From assembly GCA_964291625.2 (NCBI GenBank), contig OZ220089.1, positions 256,001 through 320,000 on the forward strand: a stretch of 64,000 nt of DNA, given 5' to 3'. This document shows, one piece after another, positions 4,285-20,056 of the stretch; the first letter of the stretch is position 1, and each line of letters opens with the position of its first letter. Origin of the DNA: Candidatus Latescibacterota bacterium (GTDB lineage Bacteria; Latescibacterota; UBA2968; UBA8231). Below the pieces are notes generated by a model. The model saw only the letters and a program-made list of their open reading frames with translations, had not been told where the DNA came from and made no database searches. Position numbers and translations under genes: made by a program.

Positions 4285-5024
4285 GCGGCCGCCGCGCCCT
4301 GATCCTGGGGGCCCGCTCGGCGATCGCCGCAGCCCTGGCGGAACGGCTCGCCGGGGACGGCTGGGACCTGGTATTGGCGGCGCGGGACTGCCGGAGGCTG
4401 GAGCCGGCGGCCGCCGACCTGCGCTTGCGCCGCCAGCGGCAAGTGGACCTGCTGGAGTTCGACGCCCTCGACCTGGAGGCCCACGCAGGGCTCGCCGACC
4501 GGGTGCGTGCCACCGCGGGGCCCTTCGACCTGGTGGTCTGCGTCTTCGGGTACTCCGGCGATCCGGAGGAGGCGCGGCACGACACCGGGGAGATGACGGC
4601 GACGCTGACGACCAACTTCACCGCCGCCGCCGTCTGCCTCGGCCACCTGGCCAACGACCTGGAGGGCCGCGGGCAGGGCGGCATCATCGCCGTGAGCTCC
4701 GTCGCCGGCGACCGGGGGCGGCAGTCGAACTACGTGTACGGCGCCTCGAAGGGGGGGCTGAACGTCTTTCTGCAGGGCCTGCGGAACCGTCTGGCCCCTG
4801 CCGGGGTGCACGTGATGACGGTGAAGCCGGGGTTCGTGGACACGCCCATGACCCAGGGCCGCGAGGGGCTGTTCCTGGTGGCCTCGCCGGAGCGGGTGGC
4901 CGCCGACATCCTGCGCGCCTGGCGTCGGCGGCGGAACGTGGTCTACACGCCCTGGTTCTGGCGCTGGATCATGCTCCTGATCCGCCTCGTGCCGGAGGGG
5001 TTGTTCAAGCGCCTGAGGCTGTAG
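4281..5024 (+). CDS. SDR family oxidoreductase, DprE2-like
   Basis: ILGARSAIA nucleotide-binding motif; SSVAGDRGRQSNYVYGASK (YxxxK); 4-nt overlap with the DprE1-like gene. Confidence 0.85.
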   Translation: MSGRRALILGARSAIAAALAERLAGDGWDLVLAARDCRRLEPAAADLRLRRQRQVDLLEFDALDLEAHAGLADRVRATAGPFDLVVCVFGYSGDPEEARHDTGEMTATLTTNFTAAAVCLGHLANDLEGRGQGGIIAVSSVAGDRGRQSNYVYGASKGGLNVFLQGLRNRLAPAGVHVMTVKPGFVDTPMTQGREGLFLVASPERVAADILRAWRRRRNVVYTPWFWRWIMLLIRLVPEGLFKRLRL

Positions 5025-7239
5025 GGGCCGGAGGGTCCGGATCCTCCAGGGCCTCTCGCAGGCGGGCGGCGAGGTTGGTGTTCCGGCGGGCCGGGCGGTC
5101 GTTCTCGATGGCCCGCCGCAGGGCGCGCTGGCTGCCGATGAGGACGAAGAGCTCCCGGGCCCGGGTGACGGCGGTGTAGAGCAGGTTGCGCTGCAGCATC
5201 GGGTAGTGCTGGGTGGTCAGGGGCAGGACGACGGCCGGGAACTCCGAGCCCTGGGCGCGGTGGATGCTGATGGCGTAGGCCATGCTCAGCTGGTCGAGCT
5301 CGGCCAGCTCGTAGCGCTGCACGCCGCCGTCGTCGAAGACGACCTCGGCGAAGGACTCTTCCCCCGTTTCCAGGCGGCCGATGCGCCCCAGGTCGCCGTT
5401 GAAGACCCCCTTGTCGTAGTTGTTGCGCACCTGCATCACCCGGTCTCCCTCGCGCAGCTCGCGGTCGCCGATGGCGTGAGGCTTGCGCCCCGGGTTCAGG
5501 CGCTCCTGGAGCTGGCGGTTGAGCTGCACCGCGCCGGTCTCTCCGCGGTACATGGGAGTCAGGACCTGGATCTGCCGCATGGGGTCGAGATCCCGGCCCT
5601 GCGGCATCCGCCGGGACACCAGGTCCACCAGGCGCTGGGAGACCCGGGCGGGGTCGTCCTCCTCGACGAAGTAGAAGCCGGAGTCGGCGCGGTTGTCGAT
5701 CCGGGGCCACTCGCCGCCGTTGATGCGGTGGGCGTTGGTGACGATGAGGTTGTCGCCCGCCTGGCGGTAGATGTGGCGCAGGCGCGCCACGGGCACGACG
5801 CCGGAGTCGATGACATCCCCGAGGAGATTGCCGGGACCGACCGAGGGCAACTGGTCGGCGTCGCCCACGAGGACCAGCCGGGCGCCGTCGGGGACGGCCC
5901 GGAGCAGCGCGTTCATCAGGTTGATGTCGACCATGGAGCTCTCGTCGACGATGACCGCCTCCGCTTCGATGGGCTGGTTGCCATCGCGGCGGAAGCCGCC
6001 CTCCCGGGGGGCGTACTCCAGAAGCCTGTGGATGGTTCGGGCCTCGCGGCCGGTGGCCTCGCCCAGGCGCTTGGCGGCCCGCCCCGTGGGCGAGCACAGG
6101 GCCACCCGCAGGCCGGACGCCTCCAGGCGCCCCACGATCTGGCGGGTGATGGTGGTCTTGCCCGTGCCGGGGCCGCCGGTGACGACCAGGACCTTCCCCG
6201 CCCCCATCTGCTCCAGGGCCCATCGCTGGTCCTCTCCCAAGGACGCCTCCTCCTCGGCATCCGCCTCCCCCACCTCCTTCGCCAGGGCCGGACCCGGGGA
6301 GGTGAGTATCCGCTCCAGGGCCCGGGCCACCCCCCGCTCGGCCCGGTGCAGCCGCCCCGGATAGCAGTCCCGCCCCTCCACGACTACGTCACCCGCTTCC
6401 TGGAGGGCCGAGAGGGCCTCCGGTACTCGGCTGGAGTCGACGCCGAGGAGGAGCTCGGTCGCCGAGGCCAGCTCCTCCTCGGGCAGGAAGAGATGGCCCT
6501 CGTCGGCGGCTTCCTGCAGCAGGTAGCGGAGGCCGGCGCGCACGCGCTCCGGGGCGTCGCGGGCGATGCCGAGATCCCCGGCGATGCGGTCCGCCGTCTG
6601 GAAGCCGATGCCGCGCACGTCGCGCTGCAGCCGGTAGGGATCCTGCCGGACGCTGTGGATCGCCTCCGCGCCGTACTGCTGGTAGATGCGTACCGCGTGC
6701 CCCGTGCCGACGCCGTGGGACTGGAGGAAGACCATGACGTCGCGGATGCGCCGCTGCTCCTTCCAGGCCTCGGCGATGGCCTGAGCCCGCTTGCGCCCCA
6801 AACCCTCGATCTCCAGCAGCCGCCGCGGCTGAGCGTCGATCACTTCGAGGGAGGAGTCGCCGAAGCGGGCGACGATGCGCCTGGCCATGACCGGACCGAT
6901 CCCCTTGATCAGCCCCGAGCCGAGGTAACGCTCGATGCCTTCGGCGGTGGCGGGGTACTCGGGGATGCACGACTCCACCCGCAGCTGGCGGCCGAAGCGG
7001 GGATGGAGGTCCCAGCTCCCCTCCAGCCGCACGCTCTCGCCGGCGGAGACCGCCATGGTGCCGACGACGGTGACCGGCTCCCCCTCGCCTTCCGGGCGCA
7101 GCCGGGCGATGGTGTAGCCGTTCTCCGGGTTCTGGAAGGTGATGTGGTCGATGAGCCCCTTGAGGCGCACACCCGGCCCGGAGGCCGGGTCCTCCGGCGG
7201 CGCCCTCCCGGGGCCTTCGAAGAGGTCGCGCTCGCTCAC
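5005..7239 (-). CDS. recD2: ATP-dependent RecD-like DNA helicase RecD2
   Basis: GTG at 7239. N-terminal ITFQNPENGYT, HhH region YLGSGLIKGIGP, Walker A GGPGTGKT, TIHRLLE, DESSM, GDADQLPSVGPG and SIHRAQGSEF. Confidence 0.95.
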   Translation of the reverse strand: MSERDLFEGPGRAPPEDPASGPGVRLKGLIDHITFQNPENGYTIARLRPEGEGEPVTVVGTMAVSAGESVRLEGSWDLHPRFGRQLRVESCIPEYPATAEGIERYLGSGLIKGIGPVMARRIVARFGDSSLEVIDAQPRRLLEIEGLGRKRAQAIAEAWKEQRRIRDVMVFLQSHGVGTGHAVRIYQQYGAEAIHSVRQDPYRLQRDVRGIGFQTADRIAGDLGIARDAPERVRAGLRYLLQEAADEGHLFLPEEELASATELLLGVDSSRVPEALSALQEAGDVVVEGRDCYPGRLHRAERGVARALERILTSPGPALAKEVGEADAEEEASLGEDQRWALEQMGAGKVLVVTGGPGTGKTTITRQIVGRLEASGLRVALCSPTGRAAKRLGEATGREARTIHRLLEYAPREGGFRRDGNQPIEAEAVIVDESSMVDINLMNALLRAVPDGARLVLVGDADQLPSVGPGNLLGDVIDSGVVPVARLRHIYRQAGDNLIVTNAHRINGGEWPRIDNRADSGFYFVEEDDPARVSQRLVDLVSRRMPQGRDLDPMRQIQVLTPMYRGETGAVQLNRQLQERLNPGRKPHAIGDRELREGDRVMQVRNNYDKGVFNGDLGRIGRLETGEESFAEVVFDDGGVQRYELAELDQLSMAYAISIHRAQGSEFPAVVLPLTTQHYPMLQRNLLYTAVTRARELFVLIGSQRALRRAIENDRPARRNTNLAARLREALEDPDPPAPTASGA

Positions 7240-7877
7240 ATCAAGGCAGCTCGCAGCAGCAGGGTGACGGCCGCCCCGAGGGCGGCGCCGGCCACCAGTT
7301 GCGCCGGCGAATGGGCCTGCCGCCGCCAGCGGGCCCACCCCGCCGCCAGGGGCAGCAGCGCGCACAGGGGCCACCACGCGGCTTCCACGAGGGTGGCCGC
7401 CAGCGCCGCCCCTCCCCCGGCGCCGGTGGTGTGGATGCTGATCTTCCACCGGCGGTTCACCAGGCCGACGCCGGCGGCGCCCACTGCGAAGGACGCCGCC
7501 GCCCAGCGCTGCACCGGCGGCATCTGCAGCCCCTGGAGGAGCGCGAACCCGACGGCGTAGCAGAGGGTCCCGACGAGCAGGAACCGGCTGCGCAGAGGGC
7601 GGGGGGGATCGTAGATGTCGTCGACTCCCCCGCCCCTGGCCAGCCAGCCCAGGAGGGCCGCGGGGCCGATGGAGAACAGCAGGATGGCCAGGGCCTTGCC
7701 CCCCGCCGACCTCAGGGGATCGCCGCCGGCGGGCAGCCACAGGAAGACGACCAGGGCCAGTCCCGGCGGGCTCAGGAGATGGGTGATGCAGCGCGCCGCC
7801 CCGTCGGTCCAGCCCGACCGGTCCGCCGCGGCTTGCGCGTCTCCGTCCCCGCCGTCACCCCCGGGCCGGGCCCTCAC
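7236..7877 (-). CDS. PAP2-like (phosphoesterase-related) membrane protein
   Basis: Multi-TM protein with WKISIH and WARWRRQAHSPAQLVAG motifs; 4-nt overlaps with both neighbours. Confidence 0.65.
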   Translation of the reverse strand: MRARPGGDGGDGDAQAAADRSGWTDGAARCITHLLSPPGLALVVFLWLPAGGDPLRSAGGKALAILLFSIGPAALLGWLARGGGVDDIYDPPRPLRSRFLLVGTLCYAVGFALLQGLQMPPVQRWAAASFAVGAAGVGLVNRRWKISIHTTGAGGGAALAATLVEAAWWPLCALLPLAAGWARWRRQAHSPAQLVAGAALGAAVTLLLRAALM

Positions 7878-8311
7878 CGCTTCCACTTCTTGCCGCTGGC
7901 ATCCCTCCCTCTCCTGGCCCCCCCGGAACCCGCTTTGCCGGCGCCCTCCACGAGGAAGCCGATGAACCGCTTCTGACCGAGGGTCTTCAGGTAGGAGAGC
8001 AGGGAGACCTCCGCTTCCTTGCGGTCGAGCTTGTACCGGTCCCGGAGGCCTTCGATCATGTCCGCCACCGAGTTGCGGCCGTCGCACATCTGCCAGACCT
8101 GCGCGCCCACCTCGTCGAGGGTGATGGTCCGCTTCTCGGGGATGTAGAAGAGCTTCGACAGGAGGCGGGTCTTCCAGGTCTCCTGCCGCGTCACCGTTAT
8201 CCGGATCTCACCCTCCTCCGTCTTCTCCCACGCCAGCAGCTCGTTGCGGGCCGGCCGCGACTCCAGCATGGCGTCCCGCGTCAGCCGCGGCTTCTTCTTC
8301 GTGGCAAACAT
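7874..8311 (-). CDS. PqqD family (RiPP recognition element-like) protein
   Basis: ITLDEVGAQVWQMCDGRNSVADMIEGLRDRY...SLLSYLKTLGQKRFI matches the PqqD winged-helix consensus. Confidence 0.85.
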   Translation of the reverse strand: MFATKKKPRLTRDAMLESRPARNELLAWEKTEEGEIRITVTRQETWKTRLLSKLFYIPEKRTITLDEVGAQVWQMCDGRNSVADMIEGLRDRYKLDRKEAEVSLLSYLKTLGQKRFIGFLVEGAGKAGSGGARRGRDASGKKWKR

Positions 8312-9329
8312 ATCCGTCCATGACTTCGTCGAGGGTGTCGCCGCCTTGTTCGCGCTTCTTGAACAGATGCTCGACGATGCAGATGCGATTCAAGTCGGGG
8401 CAGTGCCAGACCGCGCCCCGCAGGTAGCGCCTCGGCCTCGGGTTGACGAAGGGCAGGGGCCGCAGCACCTGGCGCCAGCGGCTCTGGGGCCGGCCGGTGA
8501 CGCGCAGGCCATCGTGGCCGCGGAAGTCGGCCCGGGCGATCTCGTGGTTCACGTCGCGCAGGTCCTTGCGGAAGAAGGAAGGGTACCAGTTTGAAAGGTC
8601 CGTCCCCTTCAGCAGCATGTGGGCCATGCTCAGGCGGTGCACGCGCAGGACCTGGGCGCCCCCGTCCTTCTCGAAGGTCATCTTCACGTGGCCCGACTTC
8701 AACTCCTTCTCGGTGAGCTCGAAGTCCGCGGGGGCGTGGAAGGTGAGGCCGTACAGGCTCCAGTACTGCAACTCGCCGCGGGGGTGGTCCTCGAGGGTGG
8801 GCAGGATCTCGTTCACCAGGCCGATCACGCCGCCGCCGTCGTCCTTTGCCGCGAGCACCCGCAGGAGCACGATGCGGCCGCAGTCCGGACAGGCGCGGGC
8901 CAGGTTGTAGGCCCGGTAGTCTGCCTCCCAGACGAAAGTCTCGTACTCGCTGCCCTCGAGCCAGCGCTTGTCCTGGAGGAACTTCGCGCGCCGCTCGACG
9001 CGCAGCTCCATGCCCGCCTTGTCGGCTTTCTTCTGCAGCTGGGAGAGATAGCGCCCCACGAGGTCCTCGACGGGCCGGCGGATGCCCCGCTTGGGAGGGG
9101 CCCGCCACTCGACCTCGGCCCGCACCATGCGGGTGTCGTCGAGGCGCGCGTAGCCGCTGGCGGCGTCGCCGTCGACCCGGCCCATCTCCCACTCCTCCGG
9201 GACGCGCAGCCGGATCCCCTGCCAGCCGAAGTCGTAGCGTCTGCCCCCCGCGGCCTGACGGGATCTTCCGGCGGGCTGCCGGGTCGGAGCCCCGCCTTCC
9301 ACGGCCGGAAGTCCGTCGCTTGCGGACAT
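8208..9329 (-). CDS. Hypothetical protein (~373 aa) with two internally similar domains, possibly PsbP/Mog1-like
   Basis: ATG at 9329. The halves begin FGWQGIRLRVPEEWE and WSLYGLTFHAPADFE, contain ACPDCGRIVLL and HCPDLNRICIV, and end LEDH and YVCH. Overlaps the PqqD gene by about 100 nt. Confidence 0.65.
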   Translation of the reverse strand: MSASDGLPAVEGGAPTRQPAGRSRQAAGGRRYDFGWQGIRLRVPEEWEMGRVDGDAASGYARLDDTRMVRAEVEWRAPPKRGIRRPVEDLVGRYLSQLQKKADKAGMELRVERRAKFLQDKRWLEGSEYETFVWEADYRAYNLARACPDCGRIVLLRVLAAKDDGGGVIGLVNEILPTLEDHPRGELQYWSLYGLTFHAPADFELTEKELKSGHVKMTFEKDGGAQVLRVHRLSMAHMLLKGTDLSNWYPSFFRKDLRDVNHEIARADFRGHDGLRVTGRPQSRWRQVLRPLPFVNPRPRRYLRGAVWHCPDLNRICIVEHLFKKREQGGDTLDEVMDGYVCHEEEAAADAGRHAGVAAGPQRAAGVGEDGGG

Positions 9330-9352: not shown

Positions 9353-11836
9353 TTAGAAGATGAGGACCGACACCGACTTCTGGATCAGGGCGATGGAGAT
9401 CGACGCCATGCCCATGAGCGCCATGCCGCAGGCGAAGCCGACGGCGAGGACGGGCGCGTACGTGCGCCACTGTTGTCGTCCGTAGCGGTTCCAGAAGTAG
9501 TACCGGGCCAGCATGGCGCCGATGACCTCGGTGATCATCCAGTGCGGTATCGTCGTCAGGGCGCGGACGTACCCAAAGACGAGGAGGATCGGCAGCCCGA
9601 AGGCCGACAGAAAGATGTAGCTGCCCAGGCCGACGACGGTCCCGGCGACGATGAGGTTCGGCTTGATGGCGCGGAAGAGCCACGGCTCGTCGGTGGAACG
9701 CTGGATCCAGGGACTGGTGAAGTTCGGATCGGTGTCGACGGCGAAGTAGTACTCCCAGCCGGCGGGCAGGGACTGGGCGCTGGAGGCGAGGAGGGCGGGG
9801 CGAGGCGTGTCGACGACGCCGATCACCGGTCTCTCGCCCTCGACCAGGTCGGGGATGCGGTCCGGGGTGGCGACGGCGTCGCGGACCAGCTCGGCGGCGT
9901 GCGCCAGGCCCGCGACAGCGGGGCCGGCGGCGCTCACCTCGTAGCCCGCTCCGGCCGGGAGCGCCTTCTCCAGGGCGCCGGGCGGCAAGGGCGGCACGTC
10001 TTCGGGCATACCCTCGCCGAAGTGGGTGTAGAAGGCGCGCTTCTCGGACCAGGGGCCGGCCTCCCCGAGCTTGCCCTGCGACTCTATCCACTTGCTGTCG
10101 GCGGCGCGCACTCGCCAGTACCACCACTCCCCTTCCACCAGGTTCGAGGGCACCCAGGTGGCGCTGTTGCGCTCCGGCGACTCCTTCAGCTCGCTCTTCA
10201 GGGTGCCGGTGAACCAGATGCATGTCTGCAGGGCCCGGAGGCGCCACATGACCTGGGCATAGGGGTACGAGGCCGAGGGGATGGGGGCCAGCTTCCAGAT
10301 GTAGGAGGAGTAGAGGAAGGTGGCGAAGAGCACGATGGGCACCATCACCACCTCGGCCTTGATGATGCTCGTGAACTTGGTGCCCGTGAGCTCGATCTCG
10401 CGGAACTTCTGGGTCTGGGAGCCGTAGTTGCCCAGCGGGAAGGGCATGAACCAGATGTCCACGCCCTGGTACCCGGAGAGGATGATCGTCGCCTCGCGCA
10501 CGTAGGGGATCTCGATCGTCTGCCCCACCATGCCCACGAGGCGCGCGTTGACGAAGGACTGGAACGGCGTCAGCACGAACCCGAAGAACAGGAAGAACCA
10601 GATGAACTGGTGGAAGGCGGGCAGGAAGATCCAGGCGATGACGATGAGGCCGGCGGCGGTGAGCCCGTACAGGGTCAGGGCGATCCACATGGGGAAGTCG
10701 CCGCGCCCTTCGGGCACCGCCCAGGAACCGCCCCCCCTGCCGGAGGCCCTGGCGGCGGCGGCGGTGCGCAGCCCCTGCACGACCTGCCAGATACCGATGA
10801 GGGCGATGGCGATGGTCGTGCCGATGCCGAAGCTCATCCAGAAGTCGACGGAGTTGACGAAGAAGGTCTCGATGGCGCCCATGCCGGGCTGCCAGATCTG
10901 CAGGTAGCCGAGGTCGTAGAGGATCGGGTTGGCCACCGAGTGGGCGACGACGCCGAGGAAGGTGCCCATGACCCCCCAGAAAGGCATGACGAGGCCGGCG
11001 AAGATCGGCCCCAGATGGGCGGTGAACCCGAGGGGGGTGGCGGGGATGAAGTTGCCCGTGACCTGGGTGAAGTCGACGAAGGGAATGGGGATCAGCTGGA
11101 TCGGCTTGGTGAGCAGGGAGCCGGAGATCGCCGGGATCGCCACGTACAAGGTGCCGAAGACCAGGCCGATCATGGCCCCGGCGGAGAACGCCCTCCAGCG
11201 CCACGACTCCACCCCCTGGGTGGTCTCGGCCAGGGCCGTGGCCCCCTGGGCGGCGACGGGCGCGAAGGGAAAGGGCAGGCGCTCGTAGTCGGAGTTCAGC
11301 CGGAAGAGGGCATAGGCCATGGTGAACCACGAGACCCGCGAGATCACGAACTGCGCCAGCAGCAGCGAGATGGGGATGATCCAGTCGGTGTGCAGGAAGG
11401 TCCGCTGCAGCAGCGCCGGCGACTCCAGGGGCGGCGCCCACCAGTCCGGGATCAGGTTGGCGATGCCGAACTGCTGCGCCGGCGGCGACTGGCGCAGGTA
11501 CTGGTTCCACAGCAGCCCCTCGAAGGCGCCGGTCTCGGCGGCGATCAGTCCCGCCGCCACGTAGTAGAGGACGTATACCTCCTGGCGCGTCAGGGAGGTG
11601 AAGGAGCGCTTGGTGATCTCGGCGAAGAGGATGATCGTCACCCACTCCGCCGCGGCGCCGAGGGAACCGCCCACCATGAGGCTGAGGTACATGTTCCCCG
11701 GGATCATGACGAAGGCGACGAAGAAGACGCCGAGGATCGCCTTGCGGGTGAAGCCGTCCTCGAACTCGGTCGGCGTCTCGAGGAGGTCGCGGTACTCTTC
11801 GACTTCCTGGTTGGCGTTGCTCTTGCGTCTCAGCAT
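9353..11836 (-). CDS. OPT (oligopeptide transporter)-like membrane protein with an inserted soluble FN3-like domain
   Basis: 827 aa with many TM segments; FEDGFTRKAILG and DYERLPFPFAPVAAQGATALAE resemble OPT-superfamily motifs; hydrophilic insert with WWYWRVRAA...GPWS. Confidence 0.75.
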   Translation of the reverse strand: MLRRKSNANQEVEEYRDLLETPTEFEDGFTRKAILGVFFVAFVMIPGNMYLSLMVGGSLGAAAEWVTIILFAEITKRSFTSLTRQEVYVLYYVAAGLIAAETGAFEGLLWNQYLRQSPPAQQFGIANLIPDWWAPPLESPALLQRTFLHTDWIIPISLLLAQFVISRVSWFTMAYALFRLNSDYERLPFPFAPVAAQGATALAETTQGVESWRWRAFSAGAMIGLVFGTLYVAIPAISGSLLTKPIQLIPIPFVDFTQVTGNFIPATPLGFTAHLGPIFAGLVMPFWGVMGTFLGVVAHSVANPILYDLGYLQIWQPGMGAIETFFVNSVDFWMSFGIGTTIAIALIGIWQVVQGLRTAAAARASGRGGGSWAVPEGRGDFPMWIALTLYGLTAAGLIVIAWIFLPAFHQFIWFFLFFGFVLTPFQSFVNARLVGMVGQTIEIPYVREATIILSGYQGVDIWFMPFPLGNYGSQTQKFREIELTGTKFTSIIKAEVVMVPIVLFATFLYSSYIWKLAPIPSASYPYAQVMWRLRALQTCIWFTGTLKSELKESPERNSATWVPSNLVEGEWWYWRVRAADSKWIESQGKLGEAGPWSEKRAFYTHFGEGMPEDVPPLPPGALEKALPAGAGYEVSAAGPAVAGLAHAAELVRDAVATPDRIPDLVEGERPVIGVVDTPRPALLASSAQSLPAGWEYYFAVDTDPNFTSPWIQRSTDEPWLFRAIKPNLIVAGTVVGLGSYIFLSAFGLPILLVFGYVRALTTIPHWMITEVIGAMLARYYFWNRYGRQQWRTYAPVLAVGFACGMALMGMASISIALIQKSVSVLIF

Positions 11837-11854: not shown

Positions 11855-14800
11855 TCAGGCGGAGACGGAATCGGCGGGGGCGCCGGCCAGCAGTTCCTGC
11901 CCCTGGCTCCGGTAGGCCTCCTTGGCCTCGGAGTCGACGGTGCGCCAGATGAGGAACTGCTTGCGGATGACGTTCATGAAGCGCTGGTTGACGCGCCGCC
12001 ACGAGGCGTCCTCGCCGCTCAGGCGGCGGATGTCGAGCTGGATCTGGTAGATGTTGTGCTCGGACTCGGGCAGGGCGCGGATGACGACGTGCTGGCTCAC
12101 CCCCAGGTCGAAGGGCGCCAGCCAGATGTTCATGTCGATGGTGTACCCCTCGCCGTACTCGGAGTCGAGGCGGCCCAGCTTGGCGCCGTCGGTGTAGAAG
12201 GTCCCGATCGATTCCTCGGAGTAGGAGTCGAAGTAGCCGATGAGGAAGACCGACAGGCCGAGGACGTCGCGCCCCGCCACGGTGAAGGGGAACTCGAAGT
12301 GCCAGTCGTCCCCTTCGGGCCGGGGCAGCCGCCAGCGGCGGGTCACGTCGGGTACCGCCATCTGCGACGCCCGGCGCGCCGGGTAGATGGTGGAGAGCAT
12401 GACCACCGCCATCACCAGGATGCAGGAGAGCACCGCCGACAGGGACGAGTAGTTGAGGGTGAAGCCGGTGACCACCCCGAGCTGGGTCAGAAGGGTCGCC
12501 GTGATCTGACCGACGAGGTAGCCGGCCACCACCCCGAGGACGGAGTAGACGCAGGACTCGGCCATGAACAGCCAGGCGATATGCCCCGGCGCCAGGCCCA
12601 CGGAGGAGTAGATGCCGATCTCGCGGAAGCGCTCGTAGACGCTGCCCATCATCGTGTTGAGGACGATGAGGGCGGCGATGAGGATCGGCACGAAGAGGTT
12701 GGCCACCCCCGACAGCGAGGTCATGCCCAGGGAGCTGTAGATCGACACCTTGATGTAGTCGTCCCCCGGCTCCTGGATGCCGGCGAAGAGGGTCACCGCC
12801 AGGCGCGACAGGAACTGCTCGATCTCGGCGCGCTCGTCGACGCCCTCGTCGAAGCGGATCGCCACCGACTGCAGGGGATTGCCGCTGCCCACGTTGCGCA
12901 GCGTGTGGTACGGCAGGATCAGGGTGTTGGCCGGCTCCAGGTGGACGAAGGGCTTGATCACCACCTGCGCGTCCTCGAGGCCCTGCTTCTCCCGCTGCTC
13001 CTCCTCGGCGATCTCCTGCACCGCCTGGCCGCCGGTGACGGCGAAGTCGGCGGGCGTCATCGTCTCGTCGTCGAGGTCCTTCAGCTCCTTCATGCGCGTG
13101 GAGTTGATGATGCCGATGACGGTGAACTGCTCGCCGAAGACGCGCACCGTGGCGCCGCCGGCGTCGACCTCGCCCATGTCGATGCCGAGCTTGTCGGCCC
13201 CGAGCATATCGTTGGGCAGGATGCAGACCCTCTCCTCGCCCTCCTGGAACCAGCGTCCCGCCAGCAGGGCCTGGTCGAGGCCTGTCACCTCGGTCTCGGA
13301 CGGGGTCAGGCCGAGGACGCCGAGGGCGTTATGGGCATCCTCGCCGTACTTGATCTTGATGTGGGCCTTCTTCTGGTTGTCGTACCAGCTCCGCGGCGCG
13401 ATGGCGGCCCGGTCGCCGAAGTTGCTGTGGGCGTACTCGAGGACCGACTCCTCCAGCGGCGTCCACGCCTTGCTGCGGATCAGCAGGCCCTCGTAGAGCC
13501 CCTCGTTGTCGCGCTCGATCTGGTTGTAGCGCAGGGCCGTCTGGATGGACGTGAAGGACAGGACCGTGAAGGTGAGCAGCAGCAGGGTGACGAAGGTCAG
13601 CGCCGTGCGCAGCTTGCGGCGCTTCATGTTGCTGATGCCCAGGAGGAAGGCGGTGAGGGAGGCGCTGGAGCGGCTCACGTCGGTGTCGTGGATGACCGCC
13701 ACCTCGGTGCGCAGTTTCTTCATCTGCTCGTTGAAGCGGCCGGAGATGATCCACATGACGAGGACCGCGAGGACGAGGATCACGAAGGCCAGGAGGATGA
13801 CGAAGGGGTTGGACAACTCGAAGGCCGGGTGGACGAAGGAGAGGACGATCCAGATGACGAGGAAGATGCCCGCGAAGCCCATGATCTGGCGCTGGATCGT
13901 GGCCGCGGTGATCAGCAGGCGCTCGGCGAAGTAGGCGCAGGGCAGGACCAGGGCCATGAAGAAGATGATGCCCTGGATGACGTCGTTCTGGGTCGACTTG
14001 ACGTCGGGATAGGCCCGCGACTCGAGGCCGATGGCCGAGCGCGTGTGGCGCACGAACGCGCTCCACTCCTTGCGCTCCAGGGCCGCCGCCGCCCGTTCCA
14101 GCTCTCCCCGGGCGCGCTCGTGCAGGTCGTTCAGGCGCTGGTTCTCGATGGCGAAGCTCCGCAGCTCGCGCATGCGGGCCTCGTCGAGGGTCCACATGTC
14201 CCTGGCCGACTGGTAGGAGGTGCGCGCGAAGGAGGATCCCGGCTCCATGGCGAAGCCCGCGCCCAGGGCCTCCTCCTTGTCGTCGGGGTTCTCGGAGTTC
14301 AGCAGCAGGGAGCGGAAGCCGAGGATCCCGGCGCCGAAGCCCATCTTCACCAGGGCTCCCGGCCGGGCGAAGAGCACGCCCACCGGCTCGTCCTTGGCCG
14401 AGGGGCCCTCCCCGATGGTGTATCCGTACTCCACGGGGGAGGCGTTGGTCTCGTCGAAGACGGTGACCTCGGAGAGCTTGGTGAGGTAGCGGGGATCGAC
14501 GATGTCGAAGAAGTTGAAGGCCTGGCACGGGAAGAGGACGACCATCCACTCCTTGTCGCGCCAGTCCATCTTGATCAGCATCGGGTAGGCCTGGTCGCCC
14601 TGGATGCCGCGGTCCGGCGCGTAGCTGACCCGTCCGGTGGCCGGGTCCATGCGGTAACCCTCCACCTGGACCTGCTCGACGCGGATGCGGTTGACGAAGA
14701 AGGCGCCGTCGCCGTCGACGACTTCGAAGTACTCGCCGCGCACGCCCTTGTAGGACTTCTTCTTGCCGTTGCGCACGACGCCGACAGCGCCCGTGCGCGG

Positions 14801-16666
14801 CAGGTCGGGAACGATGCTGCGCCTCGGGAAGACCATGGTCCGCGCCTTCAGGGACCGCATCGTGTCCTTGAGGCGCATCTTGAAGTCGGGGAACAGCTCC
14901 GGATCCTCGAAGGCCATGTGGAACATCCCCGCCAGGGCCCGGATCTGCCGCGAGAGGTTGTCGTAGCGGATGTGCTGCGCCCGGTCGAGGGGCGTGTCGA
15001 CGAGGAACCGGGCATCGTTGACGGTGACGAAGGCCAGGGCGGGGGTGCCCGTGGTCAGCACCAGCTCGCTGTTCACGGAAATCTCGCCGGGGACGAAGGT
15101 CTCCCAGCTCTTCCCCCCCTCGGGACTGATGCCGTTCACCAGGACGTCGCGGAAGCTGTAGCCCAGCTCGCGGCTCACCTTTCGCGAGTACCCCATGAAG
15201 TTCTTGCCGAAGGGTGCGAAGTAGCGCTTGTAGTAGAAGCTCGAGTTGCTGTTCCAGATGCCGAGCTCGTCGGTCTGCGTCGACAGGTCGAGGCTGATGA
15301 ACAGGTTCACGTCGAGGGAATCGACCTTCGGATCGACCCACTCGCGGTAGAAACCCAGGCGCAGGTCCTCGTCGTCGCCGAGCTCCCTCAGCAACTCGTC
15401 GGAGGTGTCGAAGGAGGCCTGGCGCCGGTCGCCCCCCTTCCGGTAGCGGAGCCGCCAGTCGTCGCCGTCGCGGACGATCAGGTCTTCCCCGTCGGCCATG
15501 GAGGCCCTGGCCACGGCGCGCACCAGCAGGGTGTCGGTCTCGGCCACGGAGCGCACCAGCGCCTCCTTGCCGCTGAAGGTCTCCTCGCCGAGACGGTAGG
15601 TGACCCCGTCCTCCCCCTCGCCGATCAGCCCGCGGGCCAGGGACGCTTCGACGACCCGGCGCAGGACCATGCGGTCGATGAAGGGGTTCTCGTCGCGCAG
15701 GTAGCGCTGGATGAAGTCGTCGATGCCGCGCAGGGCGAGGTGGTGCGCGGAGGTGGCGAGGAACAGGACCGAGCGCGCCGGGGGATGCTCGCGGAAGTAC
15801 CGGGCCAGCTCGAGCAGGGCCGTGATCCCCGCCGCCTGCTCGGCGCCGGGTGCGAGGGAAGGCACGACCGACATGGCGTCGTAGTACGACTCCAGGACGA
15901 TCACGTCCTCCTGGAGCAGAGGGTCGTAACCGGGGATGAAGCCCATGACGTTCCAGGCCGGGCGCCGCTCCCAGTCCATGCGGTACTCGAGGTGGACCGA
16001 GGGCGGCGTACCCGCGCCCTCGATCGCCTCCCGCAGCAGTCCGCCGTCCGCGCCGCTGACCCAGAACCGGGGCAGGTCGAGGGGCATGGTGAGGAACTTC
16101 TTCTCGCCTTCGAGATAGACGGTCGAGTCGGGCTCGATGAAGACGACGGCGGCAGCGCCGAGGTAGGCGCCGTTGAGCCAGTTGTCGCCGGAGTTGAAGT
16201 CGAGGACGACGACGGCTCCCGCCACGTCCTGGCCGTCGAGCTCCTCGAACTCCCCCCGGCCGCCGTAGATCAGGGGCCCGTGGATGCCGCCGTCGGGCAG
16301 GGTCGAGGTGCGCACCAGGTTGGGCCACAGTCCGTGGAGCTCCACGGACGGCCCTCCCGCGATCCTCAGCCGCCCTCCCTGGTCGACGGGCACGGAGACG
16401 TCGTACTTGTGGAAGGTGATGTCGTGCAGACCGATCTGCCGGAACTGGCGGTGCACGTGCAGGGCCGCCTGCTCGGCGCCGGGATAGCCGGCCACGCGCG
16501 AACCGAGGCCCGAGAAGAATCCCACGGTCTGGCGCAGACGGTCCTCCGGCGCCAGCTCGCGCAGGGCCTCGAAGTCGACTTCGGCCGCCGCCGGCGCCGC
16601 CGCGAGGACGGCGAGCAGGCCGAGGGACCCCGCGCGCAGACGGAGAAACGGGCGGATATCGGTCAT
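11855..16666 (-). CDS. ~1600-aa fusion: signal peptide, PA domain, M28 peptidase-like domain (metal ligands substituted), membrane segment, MacB-like periplasmic domain and FtsX-like permease
   Basis: Signal LGLLAVLAAAPAAA; SRVAGYPG; PA-like GPLIYGGRGEFEELDGQDVAGAVVV; M28-like SYYDAMSVVPSLAPGAEQAAGITALLELAR; NMKRRKLRTALT; NTMMGSVYERFREIGIYSSVG...AESCV; IYPARRAS. An alternative start lies at 16693. Confidence 0.85.
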   Translation of the reverse strand: MTDIRPFLRLRAGSLGLLAVLAAAPAAAEVDFEALRELAPEDRLRQTVGFFSGLGSRVAGYPGAEQAALHVHRQFRQIGLHDITFHKYDVSVPVDQGGRLRIAGGPSVELHGLWPNLVRTSTLPDGGIHGPLIYGGRGEFEELDGQDVAGAVVVLDFNSGDNWLNGAYLGAAAVVFIEPDSTVYLEGEKKFLTMPLDLPRFWVSGADGGLLREAIEGAGTPPSVHLEYRMDWERRPAWNVMGFIPGYDPLLQEDVIVLESYYDAMSVVPSLAPGAEQAAGITALLELARYFREHPPARSVLFLATSAHHLALRGIDDFIQRYLRDENPFIDRMVLRRVVEASLARGLIGEGEDGVTYRLGEETFSGKEALVRSVAETDTLLVRAVARASMADGEDLIVRDGDDWRLRYRKGGDRRQASFDTSDELLRELGDDEDLRLGFYREWVDPKVDSLDVNLFISLDLSTQTDELGIWNSNSSFYYKRYFAPFGKNFMGYSRKVSRELGYSFRDVLVNGISPEGGKSWETFVPGEISVNSELVLTTGTPALAFVTVNDARFLVDTPLDRAQHIRYDNLSRQIRALAGMFHMAFEDPELFPDFKMRLKDTMRSLKARTMVFPRRSIVPDLPRTGAVGVVRNGKKKSYKGVRGEYFEVVDGDGAFFVNRIRVEQVQVEGYRMDPATGRVSYAPDRGIQGDQAYPMLIKMDWRDKEWMVVLFPCQAFNFFDIVDPRYLTKLSEVTVFDETNASPVEYGYTIGEGPSAKDEPVGVLFARPGALVKMGFGAGILGFRSLLLNSENPDDKEEALGAGFAMEPGSSFARTSYQSARDMWTLDEARMRELRSFAIENQRLNDLHERARGELERAAAALERKEWSAFVRHTRSAIGLESRAYPDVKSTQNDVIQGIIFFMALVLPCAYFAERLLITAATIQRQIMGFAGIFLVIWIVLSFVHPAFELSNPFVILLAFVILVLAVLVMWIISGRFNEQMKKLRTEVAVIHDTDVSRSSASLTAFLLGISNMKRRKLRTALTFVTLLLLTFTVLSFTSIQTALRYNQIERDNEGLYEGLLIRSKAWTPLEESVLEYAHSNFGDRAAIAPRSWYDNQKKAHIKIKYGEDAHNALGVLGLTPSETEVTGLDQALLAGRWFQEGEERVCILPNDMLGADKLGIDMGEVDAGGATVRVFGEQFTVIGIINSTRMKELKDLDDETMTPADFAVTGGQAVQEIAEEEQREKQGLEDAQVVIKPFVHLEPANTLILPYHTLRNVGSGNPLQSVAIRFDEGVDERAEIEQFLSRLAVTLFAGIQEPGDDYIKVSIYSSLGMTSLSGVANLFVPILIAALIVLNTMMGSVYERFREIGIYSSVGLAPGHIAWLFMAESCVYSVLGVVAGYLVGQITATLLTQLGVVTGFTLNYSSLSAVLSCILVMAVVMLSTIYPARRASQMAVPDVTRRWRLPRPEGDDWHFEFPFTVAGRDVLGLSVFLIGYFDSYSEESIGTFYTDGAKLGRLDSEYGEGYTIDMNIWLAPFDLGVSQHVVIRALPESEHNIYQIQLDIRRLSGEDASWRRVNQRFMNVIRKQFLIWRTVDSEAKEAYRSQGQELLAGAPADSVSA

Positions 16667-16704
16667 GACCGGGTAATGATCGGCAAACGGCATGGGCCCC
16701 GCAA

Positions 16705-17235
16705 TCACCGCCGGGGGGCGAGACCTCCCCCGTAGCCCGCCCTGGCCAGGGCCCTCACCGCGTAGTAGGTGATCAGCCCCGTCATCGCCCCGGAGAGGAC
16801 GCCGCCCACCAGGAAGAGGGGCAGCAGCCGCAGCAGACCCGCCTGGGAGAGGTAGATCTCGGCCACCAGCAGCTGCGTCACCTGGTGGACGACGGCTCCC
16901 GCGATGCTCAGCCCCACGGGGCTCAACAGGCCGGGCACGGATCGCCGCAGGCCGACCATCGCGGCCAGGCTCGTGAGGGCGGCGCTGCCCCCGATGACCG
17001 ACGCCGGGCCGGCCAGACCGCCGCTCAGCAGACCGCCGACGAGGACCTTCACGGCGCCCACCGCCGCCGCCGGACCGCCGCCGAAGAGCAGCAGCGTCGC
17101 CAGGACGGCGGCGTTGCCGAGTCCGAGCTTCATCCACGGCAGGGGGCGCGGCACCGCCGTTTCGAAGACGAAGAGGATCAGAGCGGCGGCCGACATCAGG
17201 CCCAGGAAGGCGGCGCGCCTGCCGGGCGAGAGCAT
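16705..17235 (-). CDS. Gx transporter family protein (heptaprenyl diphosphate synthase component I-like)
   Basis: FETAVPRPLPWMKLGLGN and SPVGLSIAGAVVHQVTQLLVA motifs; adjacent to a NusG domain II gene, the usual pairing. Confidence 0.85.
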   Translation of the reverse strand: MLSPGRRAAFLGLMSAAALILFVFETAVPRPLPWMKLGLGNAAVLATLLLFGGGPAAAVGAVKVLVGGLLSGGLAGPASVIGGSAALTSLAAMVGLRRSVPGLLSPVGLSIAGAVVHQVTQLLVAEIYLSQAGLLRLLPLFLVGGVLSGAMTGLITYYAVRALARAGYGGGLAPRR

Positions 17236-17660
17236 CAGCGGCTGACCCCGTCGAAGGCGGGGCCGCCCTCGCCTTCGACCCGGACCACCAGATGGTTGGG
17301 GACACAGACCGCCACGTCGCCCACCGCCCGCAGCCAGCCGCGGCGGACGCAGATCCGCCGGGCGCAGGGAGAGGCGGCCACGCGGACGCGGCTGCCGTCG
17401 ACCACCACCTCGCTCGCCCCGGCGGGGCCGGGGACCTCGATCCGCGCCGCTTCGCTCAGCGGCAGGAGGCGCACGACCTCGCCTCCCACCTGGACGCTCG
17501 CCGACCGGGGGGTACCGCCGCCGGGCCTCGACACGAGCAGGACCGCCGCCAACAGCAGAACCGCCGCCGCGAGGACGATGTCGCCCGGGCTGGGAGGCAG
17601 GGGCCGGTACGGCTTGACACTCCCCCTGGGGCTGTTTACACTGCCGAGAGCGCCACGCAA
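17235..17660 (-). CDS. NusG domain II-containing protein (DUF1312); start uncertain
   Basis: GDIVL followed by a TM helix; VRVAASPCARRICVRRGWL...VAVCVPNHLVVRV...DGVS. Confidence 0.85.
   Translation of the reverse strand: MRGALGSVNSPRGSVKPYRPLPPSPGDIVLAAAVLLLAAVLLVSRPGGGTPRSASVQVGGEVVRLLPLSEAARIEVPGPAGASEVVVDGSRVRVAASPCARRICVRRGWLRAVGDVAVCVPNHLVVRVEGEGGPAFDGVSR
17614..17642 (+). promoter_or_regulatory. Sigma70-type promoter upstream of rel
   Basis: TTGACA (17614-17619), 17-bp spacer, TACACT (17637-17642), about 125 bp before the rel start. Confidence 0.7.
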
Positions 17661-17767: not shown

Positions 17768-20056
17768 GTGAGCCCCCTCTTGACGACCCCCCGGATCGCC
17801 ATCGACGAAGCGCCCCCCCGCAACGGGGAGGAGCTGCCGGAGCGCCCGGGCCCCACCAACCTCGAGGCCCTGCTCGAGGACTCGCGGGACCACCTGCAGC
17901 TTCAGATGCTGCTCATCGAGGTCGCCTCGTGCAACGAGTCCGCCGACTTCGACCTGGTTGCGCGCGCCTACCACTTCGCGCACCAGGCCCACGCCGGCCA
18001 GATCCGCAAGTCGGGGGAACCCTTCCTCCAGCACATCGTCGAGGTGGCTCGAATCCTCGCCCAGCTGCGCCTCGACACGACCACCGTCGCCGCCGGCCTG
18101 CTCCACGACGTGGTCGAGGATACGGAGGTCACCCAGGACCAGATCGAGTCCCGGTTCGGGTCCAAGATCTCGGCCCTCATCGACGGGGTCACCAAGATCG
18201 AGCGCTTCCAGCTCGAGAGCCGCGAGGCCCGCCAGGCCGAGACCTTTCGCAAGATGCTGCTTTCCATGGTCGAGGACATCCGGGTCATCCTGGTCAAGTT
18301 CGCCGACCGGCTGCACAACATGCGCACCCTGGACGCCCTCGACGACCACCAGCGCCAGCGCATCTCCCACGAAACCCTGGAGGTCTATGCGCCCCTGGCC
18401 CACCGGCTGGGCCTGGCCCGGATCCGCTGGGAGCTGGAGGACCGCAGCCTCAAGCATCTCGAGCCCGCGTTCTACCGTGAGATCCGGGAGAAGGTGGCCA
18501 TGCGGCGCGAGGAGCGGGAGCGCCTGATCGACGGCTTCAAGACGCCCCTGGCCGAGGAGCTGACCCGCAGCGGCATCGAGGCCGAGATCACCGGGCGTCC
18601 GAAGAACTTCTACAGCATCTACAACAAGATGCGCAGCCGGGTGAAGCCCTTCGAGGAGATCTACGACCTCACGGCGGTGCGCATCATCGTCGGCACCGTG
18701 CGCGAGTGCTACCACACCCTCGGCCTGGTGCACACCCTCTACCGACCGATCCCCGACCGCTTCAAGGACTACATCGCCACGCCGAAGACCAATATGTACC
18801 AGTCCCTGCACACCACCGTCATCGGCCCCCAGGGCATGTCGGTGGAAGTGCAGATCCGCACCTGGGAGATGCACCACACGGCGGAGATCGGCATCGCCGC
18901 CCACTGGCGCTACAAGGGAGGCGGGGCCGGGGAGAGCAGCGACCTCGACCAGCAGATGAACTGGCTGCGCCAGGTCCTCGACTGGCAGCGGGACGCCACC
19001 GACCCCGTGGAGTTCATGGAGAACCTGAAGATCGAGCTCTTCCAGGACGAGATCTTCGTCTTCACCCCCAAGGGGGATCTCCACCAGCTGCCGAAGGAGG
19101 CGACCCCCATCGACTTCGCCTTCGCCATCCACACCGACATCGGCCTCCATTGCCTCACCGCCAAGGTGGACGGCCAGATCGTGCCCCTGAGCACGCCCCT
19201 GACCAGCGGCGCCACGGTGCAGATCATCACCTCGCCCCACCAGAAGCCGAATCCGTCCTGGCTCGAGATGGTCAAGACCGCCAAGGCCCGCCAGGCGATC
19301 CGCCGCTGGGTGAAGGAGGAGCGGCTCTCCCAGAGCGTTCGCCTCGGCCAGGAGATCCTCGAGCACGAGCTGAAGCGCTACCGCCACCGCGCCGGCAGCG
19401 AGGCCCTCGAGGAGCTGGCGGCGGAGCTCAAGCTGGCCGACACCGAGCACCTCTACGCGGCCATCGGCTCCGGCGACCTGTCGGTGAGCCGCGCCGTCAA
19501 CCGCCTCGTGCCGAATCCGCCGAAGCGGCGGGTGAGGCCGCTGATCCGCGACCGGCGGGGCATCCGCATCCAGGGCATGAACGACATGATGATCCACTTC
19601 GGGAAGTGCTGCACTCCGATCCCCGGGGACCCGATCATCGGCCTCATCACCCGGGGCCGGGGGCTGTCGGTGCATCGCACGGACTGCCCCAACTTCGCCG
19701 ACCTCGCCGAGGACCCGGAGAGCCTCACGCCGGTGGCCTGGGACCTCGAGGAGGAACAGGCCTTCACGGTGCAGCTCCTCGTGCGCGGGCATGACCGCAA
19801 GTACTTCCTCTCCGACGTGACCCGAATCATCTCCGACACGGGGGCCAACATCGTCAGTTGCGAGACCCGGACCCTGGCTCACGTCGTGGAGGAGACGTTC
19901 CGGATCGACGTGCACGACTCCCGGCAGCTGCAGAAGATGGTGAAGAAGCTGCGCGGCGTGGAAGGCGTCACCGAGGTGCAGCGCGTCGACAAGGTTGCCG
20001 TGGAGGGGCCGAAGGACCCCGACGGGGAGGCCTGGAGTTCCGACGAGCGCCGGTGA
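17768..20056 (+). CDS. relA: Bifunctional (p)ppGpp synthetase/hydrolase (long RSH, Rel/SpoT)
   Basis: Intact HD motif (LLHDVVEDT), KFADRLHNMRTL, GRPKNFYSIYNKM, RFKDYIATPK, YQSLHTTV, EVQIRT, TGS (FVFTPKG), KCCTPIPGD and a C-terminal ACT domain. Confidence 0.97.
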   Translation: MSPLLTTPRIAIDEAPPRNGEELPERPGPTNLEALLEDSRDHLQLQMLLIEVASCNESADFDLVARAYHFAHQAHAGQIRKSGEPFLQHIVEVARILAQLRLDTTTVAAGLLHDVVEDTEVTQDQIESRFGSKISALIDGVTKIERFQLESREARQAETFRKMLLSMVEDIRVILVKFADRLHNMRTLDALDDHQRQRISHETLEVYAPLAHRLGLARIRWELEDRSLKHLEPAFYREIREKVAMRREERERLIDGFKTPLAEELTRSGIEAEITGRPKNFYSIYNKMRSRVKPFEEIYDLTAVRIIVGTVRECYHTLGLVHTLYRPIPDRFKDYIATPKTNMYQSLHTTVIGPQGMSVEVQIRTWEMHHTAEIGIAAHWRYKGGGAGESSDLDQQMNWLRQVLDWQRDATDPVEFMENLKIELFQDEIFVFTPKGDLHQLPKEATPIDFAFAIHTDIGLHCLTAKVDGQIVPLSTPLTSGATVQIITSPHQKPNPSWLEMVKTAKARQAIRRWVKEERLSQSVRLGQEILEHELKRYRHRAGSEALEELAAELKLADTEHLYAAIGSGDLSVSRAVNRLVPNPPKRRVRPLIRDRRGIRIQGMNDMMIHFGKCCTPIPGDPIIGLITRGRGLSVHRTDCPNFADLAEDPESLTPVAWDLEEEQAFTVQLLVRGHDRKYFLSDVTRIISDTGANIVSCETRTLAHVVEETFRIDVHDSRQLQKMVKKLRGVEGVTEVQRVDKVAVEGPKDPDGEAWSSDERR

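Follow-up and report, generated by a model that had tools for sequence, protein, structure and literature searches.

What can a peptidase fold do for a bacterium once the residues that make it a peptidase are gone, and why should such a fold be joined to a permease? The question is raised by a gene in a 64,000-nucleotide stretch of DNA from a Candidatus Latescibacterota bacterium (assembly GCA_964291625.2, contig OZ220089.1, positions 256,001 to 320,000; this whole stretch is “the window” below). Its product, 1612 residues long, consists of a signal peptide, an M28-like ectodomain, three extra transmembrane (TM) helices, a MacB/FtsX-type module and a C-terminal cytoplasmic domain (Table 1). 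A first-pass annotation had described window positions 15290-15910, which are residues 262-468 of this open reading frame, as an M28 domain that has lost its metal-binding and catalytic residues and looks like the eukaryotic proteins nicalin and nicastrin. We find that the canonical residues are indeed gone, that the substituted pocket is conserved across a large family, and that the likeness to nicalin and nicastrin is real but distant. The reading that we favor, at a probability of about 0.5, is that the M28-like “head” serves as a ligand-recognition pseudo-peptidase on a machine akin to ABC (ATP-binding cassette) systems of type VII.

The M28-like head and its substituted active site

The motifs in question are encoded on the minus strand, where SYYD spans residues 269-272 (window 15889-15878), GAEQ 283-286 (15847-15836) and AHH 316-318 (15748-15740), and LALRG ends at 15725. 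Residue equivalences were taken from HMMER alignments (phmmer against PDB sequences) to solved aminopeptidases, in the chain numbering of the Aeromonas aminopeptidase (AAP); residues 18-330 align with YwaD/BSAP, an aminopeptidase of Bacillus subtilis (E 1.1e-5), and residues 277-336 with the Aeromonas/Vibrio proteolyticus AAP. In these alignments Y270-Y271-D272 occupies the HxD motif, with Y270 at the His and D272 at the Asp; E285 corresponds to the Asp of GAxD (AAP D116/D117, a one-residue gap leaving the exact column ambiguous); and H317 and H318 fall on AAP residues 151 and 152. For the second half of the domain, the family profile was compared with a profile of four canonical M28 genes from the same genome, in which H, D, D-N, E-E and D are the invariant columns, as expected. 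This comparison (probability 99.4%, E 3.9e-21) confirmed the first three motif equivalences and set D469 at the fourth-ligand Asp (NFDS motif), N541-S542 at the Asp-His of an SDH motif (a motif that two of those four genes have) and D566 at the His of HxPxD, the last in agreement with a marginal YwaD match (E 0.82).

If we take the zinc-ligand and general-base roles of these AAP positions as established for family M28, three of the five zinc ligands have been replaced (His by Y270, Glu by H318, His by S542), one Asp has changed conservatively to E285, and one Asp is kept as D469; the expected series His, Asp, Glu, Asp, His thus reads Y270, E285, H318, D469, S542. The general-base Glu of the EE motif is H317. 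The annotation's observation that YYD, GAEQ and HH stand where active M28 peptidases have HxD, GAxD(D/N) and EE is therefore borne out, as is its claim that the metal and catalytic residues are lost: by both mappings, the co-catalytic two-zinc site and the Glu general base of an active aminopeptidase are absent.

The fold that surrounds this site is predicted with confidence. Residues 38-900 were modeled with AlphaFold2 from an alignment of 59 sequences, and the model has a mean pLDDT (predicted local distance difference test score) of 94.1 and a pTM (predicted template modeling score) of 0.93. Its best Foldseek matches in the PDB are M28 aminopeptidases with a PA domain (2ek8, 2.8e-22; BSAP; PaAP; 3iib), followed by transferrin receptor and glutamate carboxypeptidase II. 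VIA-align on the Foldseek top 1000 placed AAP (1amp) at Z 29.9 (root-mean-square deviation 2.4, 265 of 291 residues aligned), BSAP at Z 29.4 and 2ek8 at Z 29.1, and an independent VIA pass over 48,161 representative chains again put AAP first (Z 29.6), ahead of other active aminopeptidases, transferrin receptor, glutaminyl cyclases, M20/M42 enzymes and a glycosylphosphatidylinositol (GPI)-transamidase chain (Z 19.8). Since AAP, BSAP and 2ek8 all reach Z 29-30 over the whole catalytic domain, the PA-bearing M28 fold is complete in the model. The Pfam M28 match (PF04389; 29.1 bits, cut-off 21.3) covers just profile positions 1-78 of 193 because an insertion of ~125 residues interrupts the domain in the window's clade; it sits between the H317/H318 strand and the D469 strand. 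The stretch 322-612, which is 291 residues long here, has 161-188 residues in the 60 shortest of the 115 wider-family sequences listed, and distant family representatives match in two stretches.

The PA-domain M28 aminopeptidases (2ek8 from Aneurinibacillus AM-1, BSAP/YwaD 6hc6), along with AAP, are also the best sequence matches, and the PA-M28 enzymes share with the head both the motif positions and the apical-domain insertion. The head departs from them in its three replaced zinc ligands, in the change of the base from Glu to His, in the extra insertion of its clade, and in its fusion to another ~1000 residues, seven TM helices among them.

The substituted motifs are not a matter of chance, since the same residues are fixed in relatives. 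At least 300 near relatives of the protein were found; in an alignment of 31 sequences D272, E285, H317 and D469 are each present in all 31, Y270 in 29 and H318 in 27, and among the close sequences (n=121) the string YDEHHDNSE is read in 91. In a full HMMER scan over 1.84 billion cluster representatives, 2619 matched at E ≤0.001, and ordinary M28 proteins will be among the weakest of these; at E ≤1e-30 there are 690, each representing a cluster at 50% identity. In the phylum sample 108 of 121 genomes hold a match at E ≤1e-20, and the 13 without one all come from a single family-level group. Some database members (P0215, P0212, P0213) carry extra N-terminal modules: one has LysM and NMB0315-like domains and two have Big_5 domains, which hints at cell-wall or surface binding. 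One member is fused to DUF6785/DUF6784, and one ends in a WCX domain.

We then took a diverse set, the query plus 149 representatives (P0122-P0270) aligned to the family HMM (n=150). The canonical ligand set is found in none of the 150, and neither is a Glu at position 317, which places the loss of the two-zinc site, as far as these alignments tell, before the family diversified. Position 542 is variable (Ser 54, Ala 28, Gly 25, His 8) and position 270 is mostly Tyr (114, with His 12, Phe 11 and Asn 5). By contrast with the missing ligands, the pocket itself has been kept: D272 in 148, H317 in 145, R562 in 138, D469 in 132 (with 12 gaps), D560 in 131, E543 in 108, and an acidic residue at position 285 in 131 (Glu 109, Asp 22). 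The most conserved positions are therefore the former catalytic ones together with the family-specific R562 and D560. The canonical ligands are gone yet the pocket positions are conserved, so the pocket is still under selection, which at the level of these sequences appears strong for D272, E/D285, H317, D469 and E543 as well as for D560 and R562. The annotation had also raised the possibility of a “re-wired” His-His metal site. This fits the window's own clade, where H318 is nearly fixed, and fails for the wider family, in which position 318 is mostly Phe (80, with His 18, Tyr 17, Cys 11 and Gly 11); as judged from the alignment, the His-His pair is a feature of that clade only.

One could argue that such a fold is now just a structural scaffold, a rigid spacer or oligomerization platform in the periplasm whose residues are kept for stability. 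The confident, compact model suggests a rigid unit of head, beta domain and stalk, and PA-M28 relatives such as the transferrin receptor do use the fold for protein-protein contacts. But charged residues of the kind that are best conserved here, at the former catalytic positions and at R562 and D560, are rarely kept for packing alone, and we consider a pure scaffold quite unlikely.

Relation to nicalin and nicastrin

Is the head, then, a prokaryotic member of the nicalin/nicastrin group? Such a specific kinship would mean a more recent shared ancestor, or shared derived features, than with the bacterial aminopeptidases. There is a genuine signal: nicalin is matched at E 0.0084 with the single sequence and at E 5.1e-9 with the family profile (profile positions 248-472), nicastrin is matched by the profile at E 4e-4 to 9e-4, and all of these proteins are inactive M28-fold ectodomains linked to polytopic membrane partners. 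The same profile, however, finds the ordinary PA-M28 aminopeptidases far better (2ek8 4.8e-25, BSAP/YwaD 7.4e-22) and AAP at least as well (6e-12 to 2e-10); nicalin ranks 8th among the PDB sequence matches with the single sequence and 14th with the profile. In the structure searches, active aminopeptidases head every list, including that of the Foldseek search which the annotation had proposed as a check. The 50 entries listed (Z ≥18.1) by Foldseek, by VIA-align on its top 1000 or by the VIA pass over 48,161 chains include no nicalin and no nicastrin, although both may occur at lower Z. A diverse sub-profile of the domain's second half found no nicalin, returning chance-level matches and the marginal YwaD match only; with close relatives, the sub-profile of residues 296-482 matched only the AAP E151H mutant (E 0.12) and that of residues 450-625 nothing at E up to 10. 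In the ESM Atlas, the named clusters that come closest belong to bacterial M28 and carboxypeptidase Q families (scores 0.89-0.91, leads only), and the membrane part of the protein is of MacB/FtsX type.

With the aminopeptidases ahead in sequence and at the top of the structure lists, what the annotation called “nicalin/nicastrin-like” is a general M28-superfamily likeness, centered, on the sequence evidence, on the motif around E285 and the helix that follows. A specific kinship is very improbable; nicalin and nicastrin are real relatives at a distance, and what they offer is an analogy and not a membership. The excerpts available of two papers describe nicastrin as having a peptidase-derived ectodomain with a substrate-binding role (PMC2647162) and nicalin-TMEM147 and nicastrin-APH-1 as homologous pairs (PMC7505659). 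A functional analogy, in which an inactive peptidase-derived ectodomain would act as receptor on a membrane complex, is reasonable: nicalin (in the BOS complex, with TMEM147 and NOMO) and nicastrin (in gamma-secretase, with APH-1) likewise present an M28-superfamily ectodomain tied to polytopic membrane machinery. They differ in being single-pass proteins that bind a separate seven-TM partner, whereas the head studied here continues in cis into seven TM helices, of which four are of FtsX type.

The membrane module and its conserved partner

The annotation had placed its pseudo-peptidase on “a membrane machine,” and this part of the proposal is well supported: the domain is fused in cis to a MacB/FtsX-type permease, the substrate-recognition role being a proposal still. 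Hydropathy marks seven segments as TM, all within residues 905-1437, in addition to the signal-like segment at the N-terminus. Pfam recognizes MacB_PCD (PF12704) at 1041-1218 (28.7 bits, cut-off 27) and FtsX (PF02687) at 1334-1445 (57.2 bits, cut-off 25.5), and the family profile matches MacB 5lil at E 7.5e-20 over chain 269-655, which takes in all of its membrane and periplasmic portion. When residues 880-1612 were modeled (pLDDT 84.9), the structure matched YtrF (Z 15.9), the 5xu1 transporter (15.0), HrtB (14.6), MacB (14.5), FtsX (13.9), LolC (13.1) and YbbP (13.0). The protein therefore has what the type VII ABC systems (MacB, LolCDE, FtsEX, YbbAP, YtrEF, HrtBA) have in common, a bundle of four helices of FtsX type in which a MacB-like periplasmic core domain separates TM1 from TM2, and the 860-residue head and the core domain would lie on the same, outer side of the membrane. 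It differs from those systems in its three extra TM helices, its 860-residue N-terminal ectodomain and its added C-terminal cytoplasmic domain, as well as in having no adjacent ATPase gene and, as its conserved partner, a large polytopic membrane protein.

The protein ends in 165 cytoplasmic residues that are conserved in the family and for which no Pfam family was found. A helix-grip fold was considered and not adopted: the model reaches just Z 8-9 to Bet v 1/Aha1/StART-like chains, a range that the tool calls common, so that it is a lead and not an assignment. Such a domain would be unusual on a MacB/FtsX-type permease. Residues 613-900, between the M28 fold and the membrane, match no Pfam family at E up to 5, and the structure searches barely tested their fold.

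The partner, which we call N1, is encoded directly after the 1612-residue gene. We compared 80 related loci, all from metagenome-assembled genomes that carry the label Latescibacterota (or Gemmatimonadota and others, where the record is older). In 68 of them the same strand carries an N1 homologue downstream, which comes directly after the big gene in 66 and 6-9 kb further on in L059 and L076. The 12 loci without an N1 match include five that stop at or within the big gene (L031, L041, L047, L066, L071), four that are second copies in a genome (L034, L038, L050, L069) and three in which there is plainly no match (L067, L068, L080). The pairing extends to the sole Planctomycetota locus examined (L099), where an N1 homologue (hhalign probability 100%, E 4e-140), lacking the ~150-residue middle insertion of N1, directly follows a relative of a distant family member. 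N1 itself has no Pfam family and no PDB sequence match. An assignment as OPT transporter was set aside as a lead only, the matches being sub-threshold and confined to the final 50-60 positions of the profile (TIGR00728 with 17.4 bits, cut-off 128, and E 0.0013; PF03169 with 22 bits, cut-off 25.8). Homology to the DUF6785/DUF6784 membrane proteins found beside paralogues was rejected at the sensitivity of the methods used (BLASTP negative; hhalign probability 1%, or 4% for the Planctomycetota homologue).

The genome (5.9 Mb) holds five copies of the M28-like/FtsX fusion, the other four being L093-L096. One of these paralogues has a DUF6785/DUF6784 protein directly after it; a second has two DUF6785/DUF6784-type proteins before it and, after it, an 897-residue protein with 47% identity to N1; a third is followed by an 890-residue protein with 45% identity to N1. 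One paralogue neighborhood also holds a WYL/WCX regulator.

The start of the 1612-residue gene was placed at the ATG at 16693 of a longer frame (17305..11855; stop at 11855-11857) because this codon lies 12 nt past the stop of the upstream gene and immediately ahead of the signal-peptide-like stretch, which is probably cleaved. A public collection holds a 99%-identical protein of exactly 1612 residues, and relatives are labeled there “FtsX-like permease family protein” or “M28 family peptidase.” Antisense to these genes runs an open frame of 2629 residues, stop-poor because the G+C content of the window is very high (63-77%); it is not a gene.

Further along, a gene for a 373-residue protein and a PqqD-like gene follow N1, overlapping by ~100 nt as called. 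All NCBIfam PqqD-type matches of the latter are below their cut-offs, and no radical-SAM or other enzyme of ribosomally synthesized and post-translationally modified peptide pathways was seen beside these two genes. The two genes directly upstream of the fusion are kept there in ~60 of the 80 loci, and the genes flanking the cluster, for a full-length RelA/SpoT-type protein and a RecD2-type helicase, are syntenic in most related loci.

Table 1. Positions of the fusion gene, the parts of its product, neighboring genes and paralogues (window coordinates unless a contig is given)
Feature	Position	Strand	Basis or remark
Whole gene, 1612 aa	11855..16693	-	Open reading frame, start, Pfam, 99%-identical database protein
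N-terminal signal peptide or anchor, residues 1-38 (hydrophobic 21-39, Ala-rich end)	16580..16693	-	Hydropathy scan and sequence
Predicted PA-bearing M28 aminopeptidase fold, substituted active site, residues 39-612	14858..16579	-	AlphaFold2 model, structure matches, residue mapping
Notable residues of the M28-like domain: Y270, D272, E285, H317, H318, D469, N541, S542, E543, D560, R562			
Helical/beta insertion of ~125 residues, residues ~330-460	15314..15706	-	Unaligned in hhalign; clade-specific
Beta-rich domain and three long helices joining M28 fold to membrane, residues 613-900	13994..14857	-	Model secondary structure
Three additional TM helices, residues ~905-927, 935-955, 962-985	13739..13981	-	Hydropathy and model helices
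MacB/FtsX-type (type VII ABC) permease module: TM1, periplasmic core domain, TM2-TM4; residues ~1025-1445	12359..13621	-	Pfam, profile and structure matches
Conserved C-terminal cytoplasmic domain, alpha/beta, possibly helix-grip-like, residues 1446-1612	11858..12358	-	Family conservation, weak fold matches
N1, 827-aa polytopic membrane protein, no named family	9353..11836	-	Conserved directly after the 1612-aa gene
373-aa protein, no family	8208-9329	-	59/80 loci
PqqD-like peptide-chaperone-type protein	7874-8311	-	59/80 loci; PqqD Pfam E 5.3e-13
Hpre_diP_synt_I-type membrane protein	16705-17235	-	Directly upstream
NusG_II-domain protein	17235-17660	-	Directly upstream
RelA/SpoT-type (p)ppGpp synthetase/hydrolase	17768-20056	+	Cluster flank
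RecD2-type helicase	5005-7740	-	Cluster flank
Antisense open frame, 2629 aa	8846-16735	+	Not a gene
Paralogue L093	C2:551502-555914		Same genome
Paralogue L094	C1:4218159-4222475		Same genome
Paralogue L095	C2:987131-991675		Same genome
Paralogue L096	C1:968287-972819		Same genome

Possible functions of the substituted pocket

Inactive M28-fold ectodomains serve as binding modules in the transferrin receptor, in nicastrin, in nicalin and in a GPI-transamidase subunit, and two of these precedents, transferrin receptor and GPI transamidase, occur among the structural matches to the head. Here the head is the outward-facing part of an inner-membrane protein, followed by the beta-rich domain, a three-helix stalk and the seven TM helices, the last four of which, with the periplasmic core domain, form the MacB/FtsX-type permease. 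In the reading that we favor, its acidic, His-containing pocket (D272, E285, H317, D469 and E543, together with R562) would bind a ligand of amine or peptide type on the outer side of the membrane in place of hydrolyzing it. The rigid stalk would hold the head over the MacB/FtsX-type module, whose conformational changes would be coupled to the head, and the whole would work together with the co-encoded N1.

Several observations weigh against this reading. The near-invariance of H317, at the general-base position, and of D272 and D469 also fits a catalytic centre that has been altered and retained. Among the AAP entries, this segment scores best against the E151H mutant, titled “functional” by those who deposited it. 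The clustering of the conserved pocket residues in space is deduced by homology. Finally, none of the genome's 68 ABC_tran matches lies inside the window (C1:256001-320000), the nearest being at C1:193484 and C1:414516, and no ABC ATPase is found beside three of the four other paralogues, the remaining one having an ABC_tran match ~8 kb downstream; ATP-driven coupling is therefore unproven, and a cognate ATPase may be encoded elsewhere in the genome.

Much of this could be due instead to a re-wired enzyme: a hydrolase or transferase with H317 as general base in a carboxylate-rich site (E285, D469, D272 and E543, with H318 in this clade), which would use a single metal or no metal, have its substrate in the periplasm or the cell wall and be controlled by the MacB-type module. 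Besides the conservation of H317, D272, D469 and E/D285 and the E151H mutant, the LysM and NMB0315-like member would agree with a cell-wall context, and type VII ABC systems, in the excerpts available of published work, exert mechanotransmission on periplasmic partners and pair with periplasmic hydrolases (the EnvC-amidases for FtsEX, TesA for YbbAP). However, each zinc site has lost a His ligand (270 and 542), none of the 150 family sequences keeps the canonical set, and Phe, which cannot ligate a metal, occupies the Glu152 position in 80 of 150 sequences and position 270 in 11. On balance we regard a re-wired enzyme as a serious possibility, but a clearly less probable one than a pseudo-peptidase receptor.

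The pseudo-peptidase receptor would be in good company. Transferrin receptor 1 (Z 26-27), the glutaminyl cyclases (Z 24-27) and GPI transamidase 7w72 chain A (Z 19.8), which we take to be the M28-like GPAA1 subunit, show that the M28 fold has repeatedly been re-used without two-zinc chemistry, with residue replacements and partners that differ from those seen here. The 1612-residue fusion is in this sense a variant on two things already known, inactive M28-fold receptors and type VII ABC permeases. In the literature (supplementary files not included) we found no paper that relevantly joins FtsX/MacB to M28 or to Latescibacteria, none on this architecture, and none that mentions DUF6785 or DUF6784.

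A bolder version, speculative and rather improbable, is that a novel envelope machine is widespread in Latescibacterota and Planctomycetota: a MacB/FtsX-type mechanotransmission module, possibly without a dedicated ATPase, bearing in cis a pseudo-aminopeptidase receptor that hands peptide or amine termini, caught outside the membrane, to an obligatory polytopic partner of the N1 or DUF6785/DUF6784 type. If this were true, it would be an independently evolved bacterial functional counterpart of the nicastrin/nicalin principle. Receptor-like inactive M28-fold ectodomains on membrane machines are known from eukaryotes; if the head is indeed a receptor, the same evolutionary move would have been made here in bacteria, on a MacB/FtsX-type permease. 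The family is large, and it may offer a tractable case of a zinc-less M28 pocket with an invariant His, of an FtsX-type module without an accompanying ATPase gene and of a conserved, unnamed membrane partner.

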